From: an uncultured Candidatus Saccharibacteria bacterium
GTDB lineage: Bacteria > Patescibacteriota > Minisyncoccia > Phycocordibacterales > UBA9973
NCBI GenBank assembly: GCA_964356875.1
Contig: CAYHIX010000005.1
Location: forward strand, 1 to 33,316
DNA length: 33,316 bases
Direction of reading: 5' to 3'
Positions 19,647-28,623 of the stretch are shown here, in pieces (position 1 is the first letter of the stretch; every line of letters begins with the position of its first letter). The notes beneath the pieces are model-generated. The model made no database searches. It saw nothing but the letters and a program-made list of their open reading frames with translations, and was not told the origin of the DNA. A program made the translations under genes and the position numbers.

Positions 19647-22646
19647 ATGACCGCACTTAAGAAGACGGAAAAATCCTTTGAAGAAGAGTATAAAAGGCTA
19701 AATAAAGAGCAAAAGGAGGCTGTAGATACCCTAGAAGGGCCTGTCATGGTGGTGGCTGGTCCTGGAACCGGCAAGACTCAGATCTTAGCACTACGGATAG
19801 GTAATATCCTCAAAAAGGGAGCTTCTTCACCTGATGGTATTTTATGTCTTACATTTACTCGTTCGGGGGTGAGAGCCATGAAGCATAGACTCGAAGACTA
19901 TATAGGGGCCGACGCAAACAAGGTCCAGATATCTACCTTTCACTCTTTTGCAAATGAGCTTGTAGAAAAACATTATAATCTTTTAGATTTTAAAACCACC
20001 CCAAAGCTCCTCGAGGAGGATGAAGCTGTGTTTTTGGTAGATGAAATAATGCAAAAAAATGAGTGGGAACACTTGCGTCCTCGCTCAAACCCGACAATGT
20101 ATTTCAATGATTTAAAGCAGCTCATCTCTGTGTTAAAGAGAGAAAGGTTGACCCCGGAAGTATTTTTATCTTTCGTAGAAGAAGATATTAAAAATTTAAA
20201 GACTGATCCAGATAGTGTCTCCACACGAGGCGAGAGTAAGGGTAAACTCAAAAAAGAAATTGAGAAAAAAATAGAGTCACTTGAGCGCACGCGAGAGGTG
20301 GTTTCTTTTTACAGACTATACGAAGAAAAGAAAAAAGAAGAGGGATTCATGGATTACGATGATGTTTTAGAATACGCAGTCAAGCTCGTTGAAGAATACG
20401 AAAACGTCAGGGCAGATATTTATGAAAATTTTTTATATGTGTTGGTCGACGAGCATCAAGACAGTAGTGGAGTACAGAATAATTTTATAAAAGGTGTATG
20501 GAAAGATACAGAGAAACCAAACATCTTTGTGGTGGGGGATGATAGGCAGCTCATATATGCATTTTCTGGAGCCAAACTTTCATATTTTGAAGAATTTAAA
20601 AATTTTTTTGGTAAAGCCAAGCTCATCACACTAGTTGAAAATTATCGCTCTACGGCAAACATCCTCAGCCTTGCAGATGATTTACTTTCAAGCTCGCTCA
20701 CTATAGATAAACTTCACTCTAATACGAAAGGACAAGAAAAAATATTATTGCAAGAATATACATATCCCCGAGATGAAATGCTCGGTGCTGCGCTGTATTT
20801 TAAACAAAAAATACAAAATGGAGCAAAGGCAGAAGACTGCGCGATATTAGTGCCAAAGAATTTCCATGTACGTAGCTCTATGCAGATATTGCTCGACATG
20901 GGTTTACCAGTATCTACAGGGAAGAGCACTTCGCTTTTTAATACCAAGGAAGCTCGGGCGTTTGTGCGAGTTCTAAATATCGTAAATGATCCTTTTAACC
21001 CCATACTACTCACCGAGTCGCTACTCGACAGTACTAGCAATACAAAGTCTTTTGAGGCGCATAAATTTTTAAAAAACATAAAGCCGAACTTTTTAACTAT
21101 CGAAGATTTTATAAAGCACGGATCTGGTGATGGACTTTTTGCCACAGAGAATACGATATCTACTTGGGGTAAATTATTAAAAGAGTGGGTAGAATTATCA
21201 AGTGAAAAGCTGTCTTATGTTATAAGTAAAATAGGTAATGAGTTATTGATAGATAATTCCAAAAATCATGAAGACTTACTTACTCGAGTCGAAGTCGTGC
21301 GTAGCTTTATTCATCTTGCACTCGTTTTTGAACAAAAAAATCCGAATAGAGACCTGAAGAATTTTTTAGAATATTTAAGTAGGCTCCAGAGTTATGGGAA
21401 TCACATCAGCATTGCTACTTTTGGATCCGAAGAGGGTATCGCCGTCATGACTCTCCATAAAGCAAAAGGATTAGAATACAAACATGTATGGGTAGGGCAT
21501 ATGAATGAAGAGGTTTTGATGAGTGGTAAAAAGTCGGGGTTTTCATTACCAGAAAAAGTAAAGATGCATCTGCACGAAAGAGACATAGAAAATGCCAAGA
21601 GAGAGCTGTATGTGGCTATTACTCGAGCCAAAGAGTCCTGTGTCATTTCATATGCAGGTGAGAATTATAATGGTGGAGAGATGACGCTGGCAGAAATAAT
21701 ACGAGAATTACCAGACACGCATTTTATTAAAAAGAACAAAGAGGAGACAGAAAGGGAGATAATGAGTGACAAGCTAGGTGTGAAGATCTTCACTAGTTTT
21801 ATCGAAGGGCACCACGGAGACACCTTAGATGAAATTAAAAGTTTTGTAAAAGAAAATTACAAAGATAGCAAAGTGTCTGTTTCTCTACTCAATAATTTCT
21901 TCGAATGTCCTTGGAAGTGGTATTTTAGGAATTTCTTAAAGTTGCCAGAAGTCAAAGGCACATCTCTGGCTCTCGGATCCGCTGTGCACTCTACACTAGA
22001 ATTTATATTGAAAAATAAATCCCTACCAAAAGACAAAGAGATAAAAGAAAGAATAAAATACGAACTATCCAAAGAGGGCATACAAGATGAGAAAGAAATA
22101 AATAGAATCTTCAAAGATGCCAAGTCTGCAGTGGATAATTGGGTAGAATTTTACTATAAAAAATTATTAAAAGATCATGAATCCGAGAGATCTATCCAAT
22201 TTAGAGATCCAAAATACAAAGACTTACTTATGTATGGCAAGCTAGACCTAACAGAAAGGGATGAGGAAGGGAATGTTATTATCACGGATTTCAAAACAGG
22301 TAAACCTAAAACTAAATCTGAAATAGAGAAACTAGATACGGAAGGTAGACTCTTATCATACATGCGCCAGCTGGCGATGTATTCGTATTTAGTAGCGGGG
22401 GCAGAAAAAGGTAGACAAGTCGCTGAGTCTAAGCTTTTGTTCCTCGAAGGAAAGCCCGAAGATAAAAATTCCGTGTATTCTACTTTTATTGATAATGAAA
22501 AAATAGATCTACTAAAGCGAGATGTAGAGGACTATATAAACGATATCGAAACCGGTGAGTGGGTAAACAAGAAATGCCACTTTAAATCCTGGGGTAGCGG
22601 AAAAGACGAATGTGAATATTCAGCATTAGCTAAGAGGATTATCTAG
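19647..22646 (+). CDS. UvrD/Rep superfamily 1 helicase with C-terminal PD-(D/E)XK nuclease
   Basis: AGPGTGKT, DEHQD, VGDDRQLIY, ENYRS, TLHKAKGLE, YVAITRAK; GKLD...DFKTG and QLAMY nuclease motifs. Confidence 0.9.
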   Translation: MTALKKTEKSFEEEYKRLNKEQKEAVDTLEGPVMVVAGPGTGKTQILALRIGNILKKGASSPDGILCLTFTRSGVRAMKHRLEDYIGADANKVQISTFHSFANELVEKHYNLLDFKTTPKLLEEDEAVFLVDEIMQKNEWEHLRPRSNPTMYFNDLKQLISVLKRERLTPEVFLSFVEEDIKNLKTDPDSVSTRGESKGKLKKEIEKKIESLERTREVVSFYRLYEEKKKEEGFMDYDDVLEYAVKLVEEYENVRADIYENFLYVLVDEHQDSSGVQNNFIKGVWKDTEKPNIFVVGDDRQLIYAFSGAKLSYFEEFKNFFGKAKLITLVENYRSTANILSLADDLLSSSLTIDKLHSNTKGQEKILLQEYTYPRDEMLGAALYFKQKIQNGAKAEDCAILVPKNFHVRSSMQILLDMGLPVSTGKSTSLFNTKEARAFVRVLNIVNDPFNPILLTESLLDSTSNTKSFEAHKFLKNIKPNFLTIEDFIKHGSGDGLFATENTISTWGKLLKEWVELSSEKLSYVISKIGNELLIDNSKNHEDLLTRVEVVRSFIHLALVFEQKNPNRDLKNFLEYLSRLQSYGNHISIATFGSEEGIAVMTLHKAKGLEYKHVWVGHMNEEVLMSGKKSGFSLPEKVKMHLHERDIENAKRELYVAITRAKESCVISYAGENYNGGEMTLAEIIRELPDTHFIKKNKEETEREIMSDKLGVKIFTSFIEGHHGDTLDEIKSFVKENYKDSKVSVSLLNNFFECPWKWYFRNFLKLPEVKGTSLALGSAVHSTLEFILKNKSLPKDKEIKERIKYELSKEGIQDEKEINRIFKDAKSAVDNWVEFYYKKLLKDHESERSIQFRDPKYKDLLMYGKLDLTERDEEGNVIITDFKTGKPKTKSEIEKLDTEGRLLSYMRQLAMYSYLVAGAEKGRQVAESKLLFLEGKPEDKNSVYSTFIDNEKIDLLKRDVEDYINDIETGEWVNKKCHFKSWGSGKDECEYSALAKRII

Positions 22647-22669
22647 AGAGTCCTACATCCCATAAATAA

Positions 22670-22697
22670 TTGCACTAATTTTAATACATGTTATAGT
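22670..22697 (+). promoter_or_regulatory. sigma70-type promoter of the proC leader
   Basis: TTGCAC-16 nt-TATAGT with TG extension; predicted +1 at about 22704. Confidence 0.7.
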
Positions 22698-22703
22698 AAA
22701 ATT

Positions 22704-22778
22704 ATGTTTAAAAAGCGACAAATCAATAGCTCACCGGTACCTCCATCCACAAATTGGGTGGTTGGTTTTTGCTTTTAA
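22704..22778 (+). CDS. putative proline leader peptide, 24 aa, leaderless
   Basis: MFKKRQINSSPVPPSTNWVVGFCF; CCG-GTA-CCT-CCA codons; ATG 6 nt after the -10; upstream of proC. Confidence 0.65.
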   Translation: MFKKRQINSSPVPPSTNWVVGFCF

Positions 22779-22811
22779 AATTCTCTAAAAAATATATTGA
22801 TAGCAAGAAGG

Positions 22812-22836
22812 AACCACTCAATGGAGTGGTTTTTTT
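22812..22836 (+). terminator. attenuator terminator in proC leader
   Basis: AACCACTC-AATG-GAGTGGTT then T tract. Confidence 0.8.
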
Positions 22837-22894
22837 GTTCTTTAATGAAAGAATGTTCTTTAACAACTAAATAGCCTTAAGGAGGGCAAGTAAA

Positions 22895-23695
22895 ATGGAA
22901 AAATTCGCAGTCCTAGGTGCCGGTCATGGCATAGGATTATCAATCGCCGAAGGTATTAGATCAGCAGGTATAACAAAAGAAAAAATTGTTATAACACGAA
23001 AAAGTAGCCCTTTTTCGGATGAGGAAAAAGTATTTGAATGCACTTACGACAATAAAAAAGCCGTAGCTAGTTCAAATATTATAATCATAGCTGTTCAGCC
23101 AGGTCAGGTAGATGAATTGCTTAAAGAAGTTAAAAGCGTTCTTACAGAACAACATCTTTTGATTTCTGTCGTTTCTGGTTTGGAGATTAAGCAGATTCAA
23201 GCAGTGGTCGGTAAAATACCGATCGCAAGAGCAATGCCTAATATTGCAATAAAAGTTAAGGAATCTATGACATCTTTAACTCTAAGTAAAGAAGGAGAAA
23301 AACATAACGCATTAGTGAAAAGCATCTTTGATTCAGTAGGGCTGACACTTGTAATACCTGAAAACAAGTTCCCTGAAGCAACAGGGTTATTTGGATCAGG
23401 ACCAGCATTCGGATTGAAATACATCCGTGCATATATGCAAGCGTGCATCCAAAATGGATTCAATGAAAAAGATTCATTAATGATTGCAATCCAAGTTATC
23501 AAAGGAGCAGTAATGCTTCTAGAGACTACAGGTAGCCACCCCGAAGTTGAGATAGACAGAGTCACTACTCCAGGTGGCTGCACTATTAGGGGTATTGTGG
23601 GAATGGCTCATGCCGGTTTTGATTCAGCTTTAATAAAAGGAACCGAAGTGTGCATAGAAAGAGCACGAGAACTTTATCAAAAAAAGAACAAGTGA
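22895..23695 (+). CDS. proC: pyrroline-5-carboxylate reductase
   Basis: GAGHGIG Rossmann motif, AVQP, RAMPN, GSGPA, VTTPGGCT; strong SD TAAGGAGG. Confidence 0.95.
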   Translation: MEKFAVLGAGHGIGLSIAEGIRSAGITKEKIVITRKSSPFSDEEKVFECTYDNKKAVASSNIIIIAVQPGQVDELLKEVKSVLTEQHLLISVVSGLEIKQIQAVVGKIPIARAMPNIAIKVKESMTSLTLSKEGEKHNALVKSIFDSVGLTLVIPENKFPEATGLFGSGPAFGLKYIRAYMQACIQNGFNEKDSLMIAIQVIKGAVMLLETTGSHPEVEIDRVTTPGGCTIRGIVGMAHAGFDSALIKGTEVCIERARELYQKKNK

Positions 23696-23909: not shown

Positions 23910-25022
23910 ATGTTCAAGAAGGTAAACACCAAATCTAAAGAAGATCTTTTAAAGATTCTACAAAACGAGACTTTCGCGAGGAAAACTCTATCTTTTTATC
24001 GTTATGTAAAGATAAAAGACCCAAAGGCGATGAGGGATATGTTGTTTGATAAATTTTCCGAGCTTGGATGCTTAGGGAGAATTTATATTGCTTCTGAAGG
24101 AATAAATGCACAGATGAATGTACCTGAGCACAACTGGACTGCTTTTGATCAATTTATTCAAAGCACTGAAGAATTTTCTGGTGTACCTTATAAATTTGCA
24201 GTAGAGGAAAAACCTGCCCGCAGTGCCTTCAGCACAGCTGATGCAGGCGGGGGCAAAGGAGTATTGTCTAGTTTTATAAAATTAATAGTGAAGGTTCGCC
24301 CAAAGATCGTGGCTGATGGGCTTGATGATGCAACCTTTGATCCGTCTGATACCGGAGATTATGCTACCGCCATAGATGTGAATAACATGATTGATCGTGG
24401 AGTGACAGTGATAGATATGCGCAATTTTTACGAAGCCATGATAGGGCATTTTAAGGGTGCAAAGATAATGGAGGTTGATACATTTCGAGAACAATTAAAA
24501 AAAGTGCATGATATGTTTCGTGATAAAAAAGATGAAGAAGTCTTATTATATTGTACTGGCGGCATCCGCTGCGAGAAGGCCTCTGCCTGGATGAAGCACA
24601 ATGGTTTTAAAAATGTGAAACATATCAAGGGAGGAATCATAGAATATGCTCACCAGGTTAAAGAGAAGGGTCTACAAAACAAATTCCTCGGCAAGAATTT
24701 TGTTTTTGATGAACGAATGGGAGAGAAAGTCGGAGGTGAAACAATTTCTTTCTGTCAGGTGTGTGAAAAGGAAAAATGCGATAACTATATTCATTGTAAA
24801 AATAAATCTTGCCATATATTGTTTCTCTGCTGTGAAGCGTGTCAGAGTAAATTGAGAGGTTATTGTTCACGAGTGTGCAATATTTGTGATAAATTTCCTA
24901 GGAAAATCAATAAATTCTTTATGGGGGCTGATGGGCAAAAGAATAAAAATCATTATAAGAAAAATTATAAAAGGGCAAGAGTTAATACCCAGATTAGCCC
25001 AGTTGCAGAAGATTTGGTATAG
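23910..25022 (+). CDS. trhO: rhodanese-domain tRNA uridine(34) hydroxylase TrhO/YceA (UPF0176)
   Basis: SFYRY, GRIYIASEGINAQ, DMRNFYE..IGHF, YCTGGIRCEKAS, GKNFVFDER, Cys-rich C-terminus. Confidence 0.9.
   Translation: MFKKVNTKSKEDLLKILQNETFARKTLSFYRYVKIKDPKAMRDMLFDKFSELGCLGRIYIASEGINAQMNVPEHNWTAFDQFIQSTEEFSGVPYKFAVEEKPARSAFSTADAGGGKGVLSSFIKLIVKVRPKIVADGLDDATFDPSDTGDYATAIDVNNMIDRGVTVIDMRNFYEAMIGHFKGAKIMEVDTFREQLKKVHDMFRDKKDEEVLLYCTGGIRCEKASAWMKHNGFKNVKHIKGGIIEYAHQVKEKGLQNKFLGKNFVFDERMGEKVGGETISFCQVCEKEKCDNYIHCKNKSCHILFLCCEACQSKLRGYCSRVCNICDKFPRKINKFFMGADGQKNKNHYKKNYKRARVNTQISPVAEDLV
24213..24251. repeat. 39-nt GC-rich palindrome in frame within trhO
   Basis: CCTGCCCGCA-GTGC-CTTCA-GCAC-AGCTGA-TGCAGGCGGG, encoding PARSAFSTADAGG. 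Confidence 0.65.
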
Positions 25023-28377: not shown

Positions 28378-28457
28378 CCCGGCAGTAAGCTGTGCTTTAC
28401 TGCCGGGTTTTCCACAGGTGTAAATTTGCTTTACATTGATAAAATATGTGCTATATT
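28378..28457 (+). promoter_or_regulatory. 11-bp inverted repeat, DnaA-box-like site and promoter
   Basis: CCCGGCAGTAA/TTACTGCCGGG 28378-28407; TTTTCCACA 28408-28416; TTTACA-16-TATATT (28430-28457) with TG extension. Confidence 0.6.
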
Positions 28458-28464
28458 AAAAGTA

Positions 28465-28551
28465 ATGAAAGCAACAGTCCGAAAAAATTATAACCTCTTT
28501 AAGCAAATTATTTGCCCTTCAAACCTTAGAAGGCTGATATTTGCGCTGTAA
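28465..28551 (+). CDS. putative leader peptide, 28 aa, leaderless
   Basis: MKATVRKNYNLFKQIICPSNLRRLIFAL; ATG 7 nt after the -10; contains a candidate antiterminator strand. Confidence 0.5.
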   Translation: MKATVRKNYNLFKQIICPSNLRRLIFAL

Positions 28552-28584
28552 AAATCTCAAAACCAAACTTACAACCCAAACACT

Positions 28585-28623
28585 AGCTTTCTAAGAAAAA
28601 CTTGGGAAGCTTTTGTTCTTTTT
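28585..28623 (+). terminator. putative attenuator terminator
   Basis: AGCTTTCTAAG-AAAAA-CTTGGGAAGCT (11 bp, two G-U) then TTTGTTCTTTTT. Confidence 0.6.

Follow-up and report, generated by a model that had tools for sequence, protein, structure and literature searches.

A conserved leader with proline codons and two competing RNA folds upstream of proC in Saccharibacteria is a probable proline-sensing attenuator

A conserved leader of 135 bases, which carries a tiny reading frame with proline codons and two competing RNA folds, is located in front of proline biosynthesis genes in a group of ultra-small Saccharibacteria and most likely switches these genes on when proline runs short. We consider it probable (about 0.65) that the leader is a proline-sensing, ribosome-mediated transcription attenuator, whereby this reading is supported by comparison only, as there are no expression data. 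An earlier note, made from the DNA sequence alone, had described a promoter that feeds directly into a 24-codon reading frame with three Pro codons in four positions, a pairing of segments 1 and 2, a 9-nt pairing of segments 2 and 3 as well as a terminator formed by segments 3 and 4 in front of proC. This observation was confirmed, since every one of these elements is present in the sequence at the positions listed in Table 1. The note's interpretation, namely that stalling on Pro codons frees segment 2 and allows read-through into proC, is supported by our analysis. However, four points had to be corrected: the small open reading frame (sORF) is leaderless and has no SD, the antiterminator comprises about 20 bp instead of 9, the 5' half of the sORF pairs with its 3' half in a long hairpin, and the element is not unique but one subfamily of a larger leader family.

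Layout of the leader upstream of proC

The window, i.e., the whole analysed stretch of 33,316 nucleotides, is contig CAYHIX010000005.1 (forward strand) of the Candidatus Saccharibacteria assembly GCA_964356875.1, which comprises 674 kb in 38 contigs and is 96% complete (genome G000 in the following). The GC content is 35-43%. The leader lies between a gene for an AddA-like helicase-nuclease and proC, which is followed by a gene for a UPF0176/rhodanese protein (trhO-like), pheS and pheT, and then gyrB. ProC was identified by the Pfam domain P5CR_dimer (6.7e-27) and passes the NCBIfam proC equivalog TIGR00112 narrowly (197.7 bits against a cut-off of 196.75).

Table 1. Positions of the leader elements and neighbouring features in the window
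Feature	Position	Strand	Description
AddA-like gene	19647-22646		UvrD/PD-(D/E)XK helicase-nuclease
Promoter	22670-22697	+	-35 TTGCAC (22670-75), 16-nt spacer, TG (22689-90), -10 TATAGT (22692-97)
Leaderless sORF	22704-22778	+	24 codons, MFKKRQINSSPVPPSTNWVVGFCF; no SD; TAA at 22776-78; predicted transcription start at the A of the ATG (22704)
Putative sensor codons	22734-22745	+	Pro11 (CCG, 22734-36), Val12, Pro13 (CCT, 22740-42), Pro14 (CCA, 22743-45)
Segment 1	22711-22749	+	5' half of the sORF; 22711-18 and 22720-26 pair with 22762-76; CCATCCA (22743-49) pairs with TGGGTGG (22755-61), 7 pairs, one of them G-U
Hairpin 1:2	22743-22761		followed by TTGGTTTTTG; listed as terminator-like
Segment 2	22753-22776	+	ATTGGGTGGTTGGTTTTTGC...; 3' arm of the sORF hairpin, followed by a U tract (pause- or terminator-like); 5' strand of the antiterminator
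Antiterminator (2:3)	22753-22822		helix of about 20 bp; includes TGGGTGGTT (22755-63), complementary to AACCACTCA (22812-20)
Segment 3	22802-22822	+	AGCAAGAAGGAACCACTCAAT; 3' strand of the antiterminator and 5' arm of the terminator
Intrinsic terminator (3:4)	22807-22836	+	13 pairs, loop of 4; core stem 22811-19 with 22824-32, loop AATG, U7 at 22830-36
Spacer	22837-22894	+	two GTTCTTT copies (22837-43, 22855-61), SD AAGGAGG (22879-85); no promoter-like site found
proC	22895-23695	+	pyrroline-5-carboxylate reductase
UPF0176/rhodanese gene	23910-25022
Sister leader sORF	28465-28551		MKATVRKNYNLFKQIICPSNLRRLIFAL; preceded by a promoter
Sister leader terminator	28585-28611

The -10 box ends exactly 6 nt before the ATG, which implies a leaderless mRNA. 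Such starts are usual in this genome, as a -10-like hexamer (TANNNT) ends exactly 6 nt before the first ATG of 113 of 586 long ORFs, whereas the counts at the other spacings from 0 to 30 nt are 15-58. By a cruder count, 162 of 589 ORFs have no SD but have such a box 5-8 nt upstream. A consensus scan of the window listed the terminator and the terminator-like 1:2 hairpin, whereby 5 terminator-like sites were found in total against 1.9 in shuffled sequences. The scan did not list the promoter because its -35 box matches only 3 of 6 positions, and it detected no promoter-like site on the + strand between the terminator and proC. The A-rich 5' part of the sORF (22711-26) pairs with the U-rich stretch that follows the 1:2 hairpin, so that the whole sORF folds into one long hairpin. 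RNA 22700-22845 folds at -35.9 kcal/mol against -24.8 +/- 3.4 kcal/mol for shuffles (z -3.26), and 2 of 200 shuffles fold as well.

Distribution and conservation of the leader

In order to find relatives of the leader, a blastn search with the 248-nt intergenic DNA was carried out against 201 genomes of the genus, which identified the whole promoter-to-terminator stretch at 70-86% DNA identity in 9 other genomes. The neighbouring ProC proteins of some of these are only 24-29% identical. An exact 15-nt motif occurs in 11 of 212 genomes of the genus against 0 for the control pattern, although one of the 11 (genome G117) is an ordinary terminator. In the order, the same approach matched 3 of 400 other genomes, all by chance, where the control pattern gave 8 hits. 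A degenerate 22-nt pattern yielded 13 metagenome stretches (designated L), of which nine are true copies, 5 of them new and distinct, and 4 are chance matches. Reading upstream of the P5CR genes of the genus added two diverged copies (genomes G190 and G098) and one decayed remnant (G608). In total, 17 full distinct leaders were obtained, plus one in G048 that is cut by a contig end; the ProC of the G048 contig is 72% identical to that of the window. The tallies over the genus, among them those of the blastn, 15-nt motif, P5CR and covariance model searches, include three unpublished genomes whose sequences were not read: G076 contributes one P5CR hit and model hits, one of them strong, G146 one weak model hit, and G138 none. 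The copies are related, and therefore the counts given below are not independent events.

Every copy has a -35 box of the TTGCAC or TTTACA type, a TG-extended -10 box and a terminator. The start codon is ATG in 16 copies and GTG in G190, and it lies 6 nt after the -10 box in 15 of 17 copies, 7 nt in G190 and 9 nt in G108, whereas the bases on either side of it vary freely. The sORF has 24 codons in 14 copies and 26 in G108 and G098, while in G083 a 1-nt deletion shifts the frame.

The earlier note had named two comparisons by which its reading could be examined, namely whether the Pro codons and whether the 2:3 and 3:4 stems are kept among relatives, and had counted a lack of conserved Pro codons or of the 2:3 pairing as evidence against it. 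Both the codons and the stems are kept. The first Pro is present in 17 of 17 leaders, and all 17 have at least two Pro codons within five codons. Among the 13 copies of equal length, Met1, Asn8 (AAT 8, AAC 5), Pro11 (CCC 9, CCG 4) and Val12 (GTA 13) are invariant, and Pro13 is present in 12 of 13 (CCT 5, CCA 4, CCG 2, CCC 1). CCC and CCG are the two rarest Pro codons of the genome (415 and 594, against 1717 CCT and 2121 CCA), and ARAGORN found one tRNA-Pro (UGG) among 29 tRNAs. The diverged copies keep the Pro codons while their neighbours change by whole codons (LPVPP in G190, TPVFPP in G098, SPFTP in G108). However, there are only 2-3 Pro codons, these are not consecutive, and they lie in or beside the C-rich strand that must pair with GGGTGG, so that they could be a by-product. 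Codon periodicity over codons 2-17 is weak (0.33/0.29/0.39) and does not serve as proof of translation; the peptide as such is therefore not conserved. Codons 18-25 are fixed at the nucleotide level, with no synonymous change except one TGC to TGT, whereas the peptide is allowed to change there (W18 is K in G158, and the last residue is A, F, V or I). We read this as a constraint on the RNA, as expected for a strand that must pair with two partners. Within segment 2, GGTGGTTGGTTTTTG is invariant in 15 of 17 copies.

Competing folds of the leader RNA

In order to find out whether the position of a ribosome would decide the fold, constrained folding was performed. With nt 1 to the second Pro codon + 12 masked, the minimum-energy fold is the antiterminator in 15 of 15 leaders, and with a ribosome on the stop codon it is the terminator in 14 of 14. 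The free RNA shows the sORF hairpin plus terminator in 11 of 15 leaders, but is already the antiterminator in 4 of 15. The two diverged copies have much stronger terminators, and in full-length folds the terminator persists under three of three maskings in G190 and two of three in G098. In nascent RNA that ends at the terminator loop, which is the kinetically relevant state, all 17 leaders pair at least 78% of the terminator's 5' arm with segment 2 (-13.5 to -27.1 kcal/mol), and shuffled versions of segment 2 do as well in 0-6 of 200 trials.

On the alignment of 15 sequences, 95.5% of cells of the antiterminator are paired against 37-49% when the partner is slid, whereby ten pairs change on one side and 4 on both. 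For the sORF hairpin, 89.5% are paired against 34-55%. In both cases the structures were derived from these same sequences. Compensating changes run through segments 1 to 4 in G190, G108 and G098. G190 turns GGTTGG into GGCTGG in segment 2 and matches it in segments 1 (CCAGC), 3 (AACCAGCTAC) and 4 (GTAGCTGGTT), and G108 keeps the pairing by shifting register. As a control, 130 terminator-like sites of the genome were examined for upstream structure that sequesters the 5' arm. Here, the leader is second strongest (-23.3 kcal/mol against a mean of -9.3, sd 5.3), and only 2 of the 130 have at least 80% of the arm sequestered at -20 kcal/mol or lower. Segment 2 is not uniquely complementary to its own terminator, since terminators of the form AAAACCACCC...GGGTGGTTTT are common in the genome and the cognate pair ranks only 2nd of 130.

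Genes downstream of the leader

In 13 of 18 loci the next gene is a proline biosynthesis gene or related to one. It is a proC like that of the window in 9 loci (G000, G048, G210, G120, G158, G190, G098, L031 and L035), proB-proC in 3 (G007, where proA follows, G114 and G055), and a P5CR-related ORF of 353 aa in G108 (54.8 bits with the proC model, below the cut-off). The other five have no pro gene downstream, and four of these leaders are intact. They comprise G213 and L034 (a shared 70-aa ORF), L040 (a 51-aa ORF, then pheST), L038 (a small ORF, then a cyanophycin-synthetase-like ORF) and G083 (the only frameshifted sORF, then a thioredoxin-like ORF). Most of the copies share the upstream addA-like gene, so the counts overstate independence. 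P5CR was found in 40 of 212 genomes of the genus, of which 39 were read and three had too little upstream DNA to judge. Only 10 of the 36 evaluable genomes have the leader, and most proB-proC-proA operons have only a promoter upstream. All 7 genomes of the genus whose proC is like that of the window carry the leader. In G000 proC is an orphan, as tblastn found no proA or proB, and neither Aminotran_3 nor an arginine deiminase was found, so that the source of P5C was not identified.

A wider family of leaders

A covariance model (R1) built from the 15 leaders and the antiterminator hit 43 of 151 genomes of the genus at E up to 0.001, with up to 4 hits per genome. Pro-type copies score above 85 bits, except G190 (67) and G098 (54), whereas the remaining hits score 28-58 bits and mostly match over the full model length. 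One of these sister leaders is located in the window itself (Table 1). The model alignment shows clear homology and compensating changes in the 2:3 helix, with TTGGGT...ACTCAA in the Pro type against TTAGAA...TTCTAA in the sister type. Both types share the motif TTTGCGCT(G)TAAAA..TCTC around the stop codon, read in different frames. Sister sORFs start with GTG or ATG 6 nt after a -10 box, and at the position of P-V-P they carry FFF(F) in at least 11 copies, LLL in 5 (with different Leu codons), IISIIS in 1, or other residues. Each sister leader is followed by a small SD-led ORF of varied sequence, and the next larger gene is non-discriminating AspRS, gyrB, murB, rpiB, prs, prephenate dehydratase (G062b, downstream of an FFF leader) or a class IV aminotransferase (G058b, likewise FFF). 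Most of these genes do not match the residue run, which counts against a simple amino acid reading for them.

Outside the genus, R1 hit 3 of 150 other genomes searched. In G307, a genome of another genus, the full-length hit (E 4.8e-4) is a leaderless sORF of 24 codons, MKFFGNNFGHHHTNLFQGLVFVML, which carries His10-His11-His12, shows the same three fold states and lies 27 nt before hisG (Pfam HisG 4.1e-18, HisG_C 7.4e-9). This pair was found by a model that knows nothing of codons or genes and is the best independent support that this leader family senses specific amino acids. hisG was detected in only 5 of 351 genomes of the order. The four other than G307 were uninformative, since two lie inside operons after what appears by eye to be a hisE-like ORF, one follows another ORF, and one is cut off. 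The other two R1 hits, G225 (sORF with THHNAN) and G254 (sORF with two Trp), precede unknown small ORFs.

Proposed mechanism and alternative readings

We suggest that the leader is a transcription attenuator of the trp/his type, which senses proline through the Pro codons of a leaderless leader peptide. In this view, transcription would start at the A of the ATG and a 70S ribosome would load on the 5' end. Segment 1 would pair with the G/U-rich segment 2, and the U tract that follows would make this hairpin pause- or terminator-like. When Pro-tRNA is plentiful, the ribosome would run to the stop codon and cover segment 2, so that segment 3 pairs with segment 4 and RNA polymerase terminates at the U7 tract. 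When Pro-tRNA is scarce, the ribosome would stall at codon 11, 13 or 14, hold segment 1 and leave segment 2 free to pair with segment 3, whereby the terminator cannot form and transcription reads into the SD-led proC. Our analysis demonstrates the sequence parts, their conservation, the mutually exclusive pairings and the gene context, whereas the transcription start, translation of the sORF, stalling at Pro codons and any response to proline are inferred; no transcription start, 3' end near 22836 or response to proline was measured, and no RNA data were available for the locus. As the question concerns RNA, no structure prediction, protein-homologue search or complex prediction was carried out. 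The leader has the short ORF with codons of the amino acid made by the downstream genes, the 1:2, 2:3 and 3:4 pairings (with the exceptions of the full-length folds of G190 and G098) and, by the consensus scan, the terminator without a promoter behind it that belong to a leader-peptide attenuator. Such an attenuator also requires that the leader ORF is translated and that read-through rises when the cognate charged tRNA is scarce, for which there is only indirect support from the -10 box + 6 nt + ATG architecture shared with 113 of 586 ORFs.

It could also be, although this is unlikely, that the leader is translated and switches between the 2:3 and 3:4 folds without being specific for proline, and instead reports overall ribosome progress or EF-P-dependent slowness at P-V-P-P. 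In this case the Pro codons would be a by-product of the C-rich strand. The presence of EF-P in G000, the sister leaders in front of unrelated genes, the four intact Pro-type leaders without a pro gene, the Val12 codon that is invariant at the nucleotide level and the weak periodicity would fit this reading. However, Pro codons persist where they are not needed for pairing, as in G098, where CCC CCT lies 5' of the arm ACCAGC. Furthermore, pro genes of three different kinds follow in 13 of 18 loci, the HHH leader precedes hisG, and FFF leaders lie upstream of prephenate dehydratase and a class IV aminotransferase.

Less likely still, the element might be an independent small gene, for a small RNA or a 24-residue peptide, that lies next to proC only through inherited gene order (addA-like, element, proC, trhO-like). 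It is a self-contained unit of promoter, about 134 nt and a strong terminator, its family is multi-copy, and most Pro-type copies share the addA-like gene. Against this, the consensus scan found no promoter-like site between the terminator and the SD-led proC, the gap is only 58 nt, and the leader also occurs after other upstream genes (a comF-like gene in L038 and G083, others in G158, G098 and G190). In addition, the 3' half of the sORF is fixed at the nucleotide and not at the peptide level, and the two mutually exclusive helices are conserved.

A choice set by a protein, a tRNA as in a T-box or a small ligand, with a coincidental ORF, is very unlikely: segment 2 (AAUUGGGUGGUU) resembles the T-box motif and Firmicute proline genes use T-boxes, but no T-box (RF00230) or other Rfam family matched the region, the roughly 50 nt upstream of segment 2 are too short for a Stem I, and the start codon at its distance from the -10 box (with the exceptions given above), the invariant stop and the whole-codon indels would not be explained.

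It is tentatively possible that the proC leader is one member of a homologous family of leaderless-sORF attenuators in Saccharibacteria, in which amino acid specificity has been re-programmed by swapping the sensor codons, with compensating changes running through segments 1 to 4. Pro is seen before proC/proB and His before hisG, whereas Phe (before pheA and an aminotransferase) and Leu are possible further cases. This would make it a main amino acid-sensing device in a lineage with almost no classical regulators.

Comparison with known leaders

Enterobacterial leader-peptide attenuators (trpL, hisL, leuL, thrL, pheL, ilv leaders; for pheL and hisL see PMC3082878 and PMC4046918) share with the proC leader a short ORF with codons of the end-product amino acid in or next to segment 1, the alternative 1:2, 2:3 and 3:4 pairings, an intrinsic terminator just before the biosynthetic gene and a fold decided by the ribosome's position. 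Here, by contrast, the leader ORF has no SD and transcription is predicted to start at the ATG, the amino acid is proline, there are only 2-3 non-adjacent sensor codons, the host is a CPR genome of 674 kb, and the leaders for different amino acids appear to be homologous to each other. In the mycobacterial polycysteine leaders (Canestrari et al., bioRxiv 10.1101/834739), a leaderless sORF is likewise the first gene of the transcript, and ribosomes stalled on codons of the sensed amino acid remodel the downstream RNA and turn on genes for that amino acid. Those leaders act on the ribosome-binding site and sense by a polycysteine run rather than P-V-P, whereas the competing structure here is a hairpin plus U7 terminator that ends 43 nt before the SD; a small hairpin around the SD was seen by eye only and was not examined. 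In the Salmonella mgtL and mgtP leaders (PMC3641672), Pro codons in a short leader ORF couple proline or Pro-tRNA availability to the choice of RNA structure. The mgtL and mgtP leaders control Mg2+ transport and virulence genes, are SD-led and sit in long multi-signal leaders, whereas the target here is proline biosynthesis itself. The proline T-box leaders of Firmicute proBA/proI follow the same physiological logic, in that low charged tRNA-Pro leads to antitermination before proline genes, but a T-box binds uncharged tRNA directly and needs no translation.

Leader-peptide attenuation is a textbook mechanism, but literature searches, in which only listings and abstracts were seen, revealed no case for proline biosynthesis and no paper on attenuation or leaderless mRNAs in Saccharibacteria or CPR/Patescibacteria. 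Regulation in these ultra-small epibionts is almost unexplored, and here the whole device is readable from sequence. If our reading is right, it shows how transcription-translation coupling can be set up with no 5' UTR at all, and it suggests that these epibionts sense the supply of single amino acids, presumably from the host. As the leaders for different amino acids look homologous, they offer a rare chance to see how an attenuator changes specificity.

Additional sequence searches

Rfam searches gave no match at gathering score over the window, including the T-box model with its Stem I, specifier loop and antiterminator bulge that binds the tRNA 3' end. At E up to 10 only chance-level hits and no T-box appeared within 22600-22950, where Phe_leader scored 19.6 bits against its gathering score of 55, and no relevant match was obtained at E up to 0.01 in 11 loci with sister leaders. 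DNA contigs of four runs compared with the locus gave only fragmentary pieces and two neighbouring letter changes at 22729-30, which was uninformative. The GTTCTTT repeat of the spacer is not a genome-wide motif, since it occurs 208 times and thus no more often than permuted words (234-426).

Leaders of Related Architecture Inside and Outside the Genus

Besides the proline-codon (Pro-type) leader of proC, we found a second leader of the same architecture in the window. It consists of a promoter (TTTACA...TGCTATATT), a leaderless sORF encoding MKATVRKNYNLFKQIICPSNLRRLIFAL, and a terminator, whereby the 5' arm and loop of the terminator are complementary to TTAGAAGGCTG inside the sORF. This leader belongs to a multi-copy sister family. 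A blastn search identified the core in 20 of 61 genus genomes, whereas hits of R1, the covariance model built from the Pro-type leaders, occur in 43 of 151 genomes, Pro type included. No Rfam family matches. Each sister leader is followed by an SD-led small ORF of 20-150 aa with varied sequence, for example the Cys-rich pair in genomes G147 and G158b (..CCEGK..CLRD.CP.Y.KAK). Only after that come larger genes, namely AspRS-ND, gyrB, murB, rpiB, prs, pheA, and a class IV aminotransferase. The gyrB gene downstream of the sister leader in genome G124 carries weak intein-splicing and HNH matches, both of which score below the Pfam cut-offs (32.6 against 35.8 bits and 21.2 against 24.8, respectively).

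In another genus of the order, a homologous leader is present in genome G307. Its 24-codon leaderless sORF encodes MKFFGNNFGHHHTNLFQGLVFVML, with His codons at positions 10-12. The leader lies 27 nt upstream of hisG and shows the same three fold states as the Pro leader. Two more model hits outside the genus, in genomes G225 and G254, are weak. Their leaderless sORFs are MIFELQNLTHHNANLFKGWCL and MKQRSNNFAWHDTNNLWVGASSR, respectively, and each precedes a small ORF with no Pfam match.

Coordinates of the leaders and of the associated features
Feature	Location	Strand
Second leader	window 28430-28611; also G000:C3:23725-23858 (G000, genome of the window)	+ (window copy)
sORF of the second leader	window 28465-28551	+
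Terminator of the second leader	window 28585-28611	+
Small ORFs just after the sister-family terminators	loci L096-L100 and L112-L134
gyrB with weak intein-splicing and HNH matches (G124)	L118 672-2900
Leader upstream of hisG (G307)	L136 1501-1630 (G307:C11:8987-9116)
Weak model hit (G225)	L135 1501-1622
Weak model hit (G254)	L137 1501-1637	minus
Stretch from the Pro-leader terminator to the SD of proC	window 22837-22885
GTTCTTT copies in this stretch	window 22837-43 and 22855-61
Decayed Pro leader upstream of proB (G608)	L063
Terminators of the shared form, examples	G000 C7:19372, C5:11419, C8:24968

Surroundings of the Pro Leader and Features of the G000 Genome

Downstream of the terminator of the Pro leader, the motif GTTCTTT occurs twice and recurs 2-3 times at this place in most Pro-type loci. 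However, it is absent from the three proB-type loci and is not enriched genome-wide. The SD of proC sits in a possible small hairpin, GCCUU-AAGG-AGGGC, which was seen by eye only, as was the corresponding GCCCU-AAGG-AGGGGC of locus L031. Upstream of proB in genome G608, a decayed remnant of the Pro leader was found, in which a terminator-like stretch (ACGGGGCCGCTCAAAGGTCC, as in genome G055) remains behind a new promoter, whereas the sORF is gone.

In the G000 genome, proC is an orphan. A tblastn search of this genome found no proA or proB, and likewise no class III aminotransferase or arginine deiminase was found; a source of P5C was thus far not identified. EF-P is present. Leaderless gene starts appear to be very common in G000, since a TANNNT hexamer ends exactly 6 nt before the first ATG of 113 of 586 long ORFs, against a background of about 25. 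Furthermore, many intrinsic terminators of this genome share the form AAAAACCACCC-loop-GGGTGGTTTTT. Segment 2 of the Pro leader, the 3' arm of its sORF hairpin, therefore resembles a generic terminator 3' arm.
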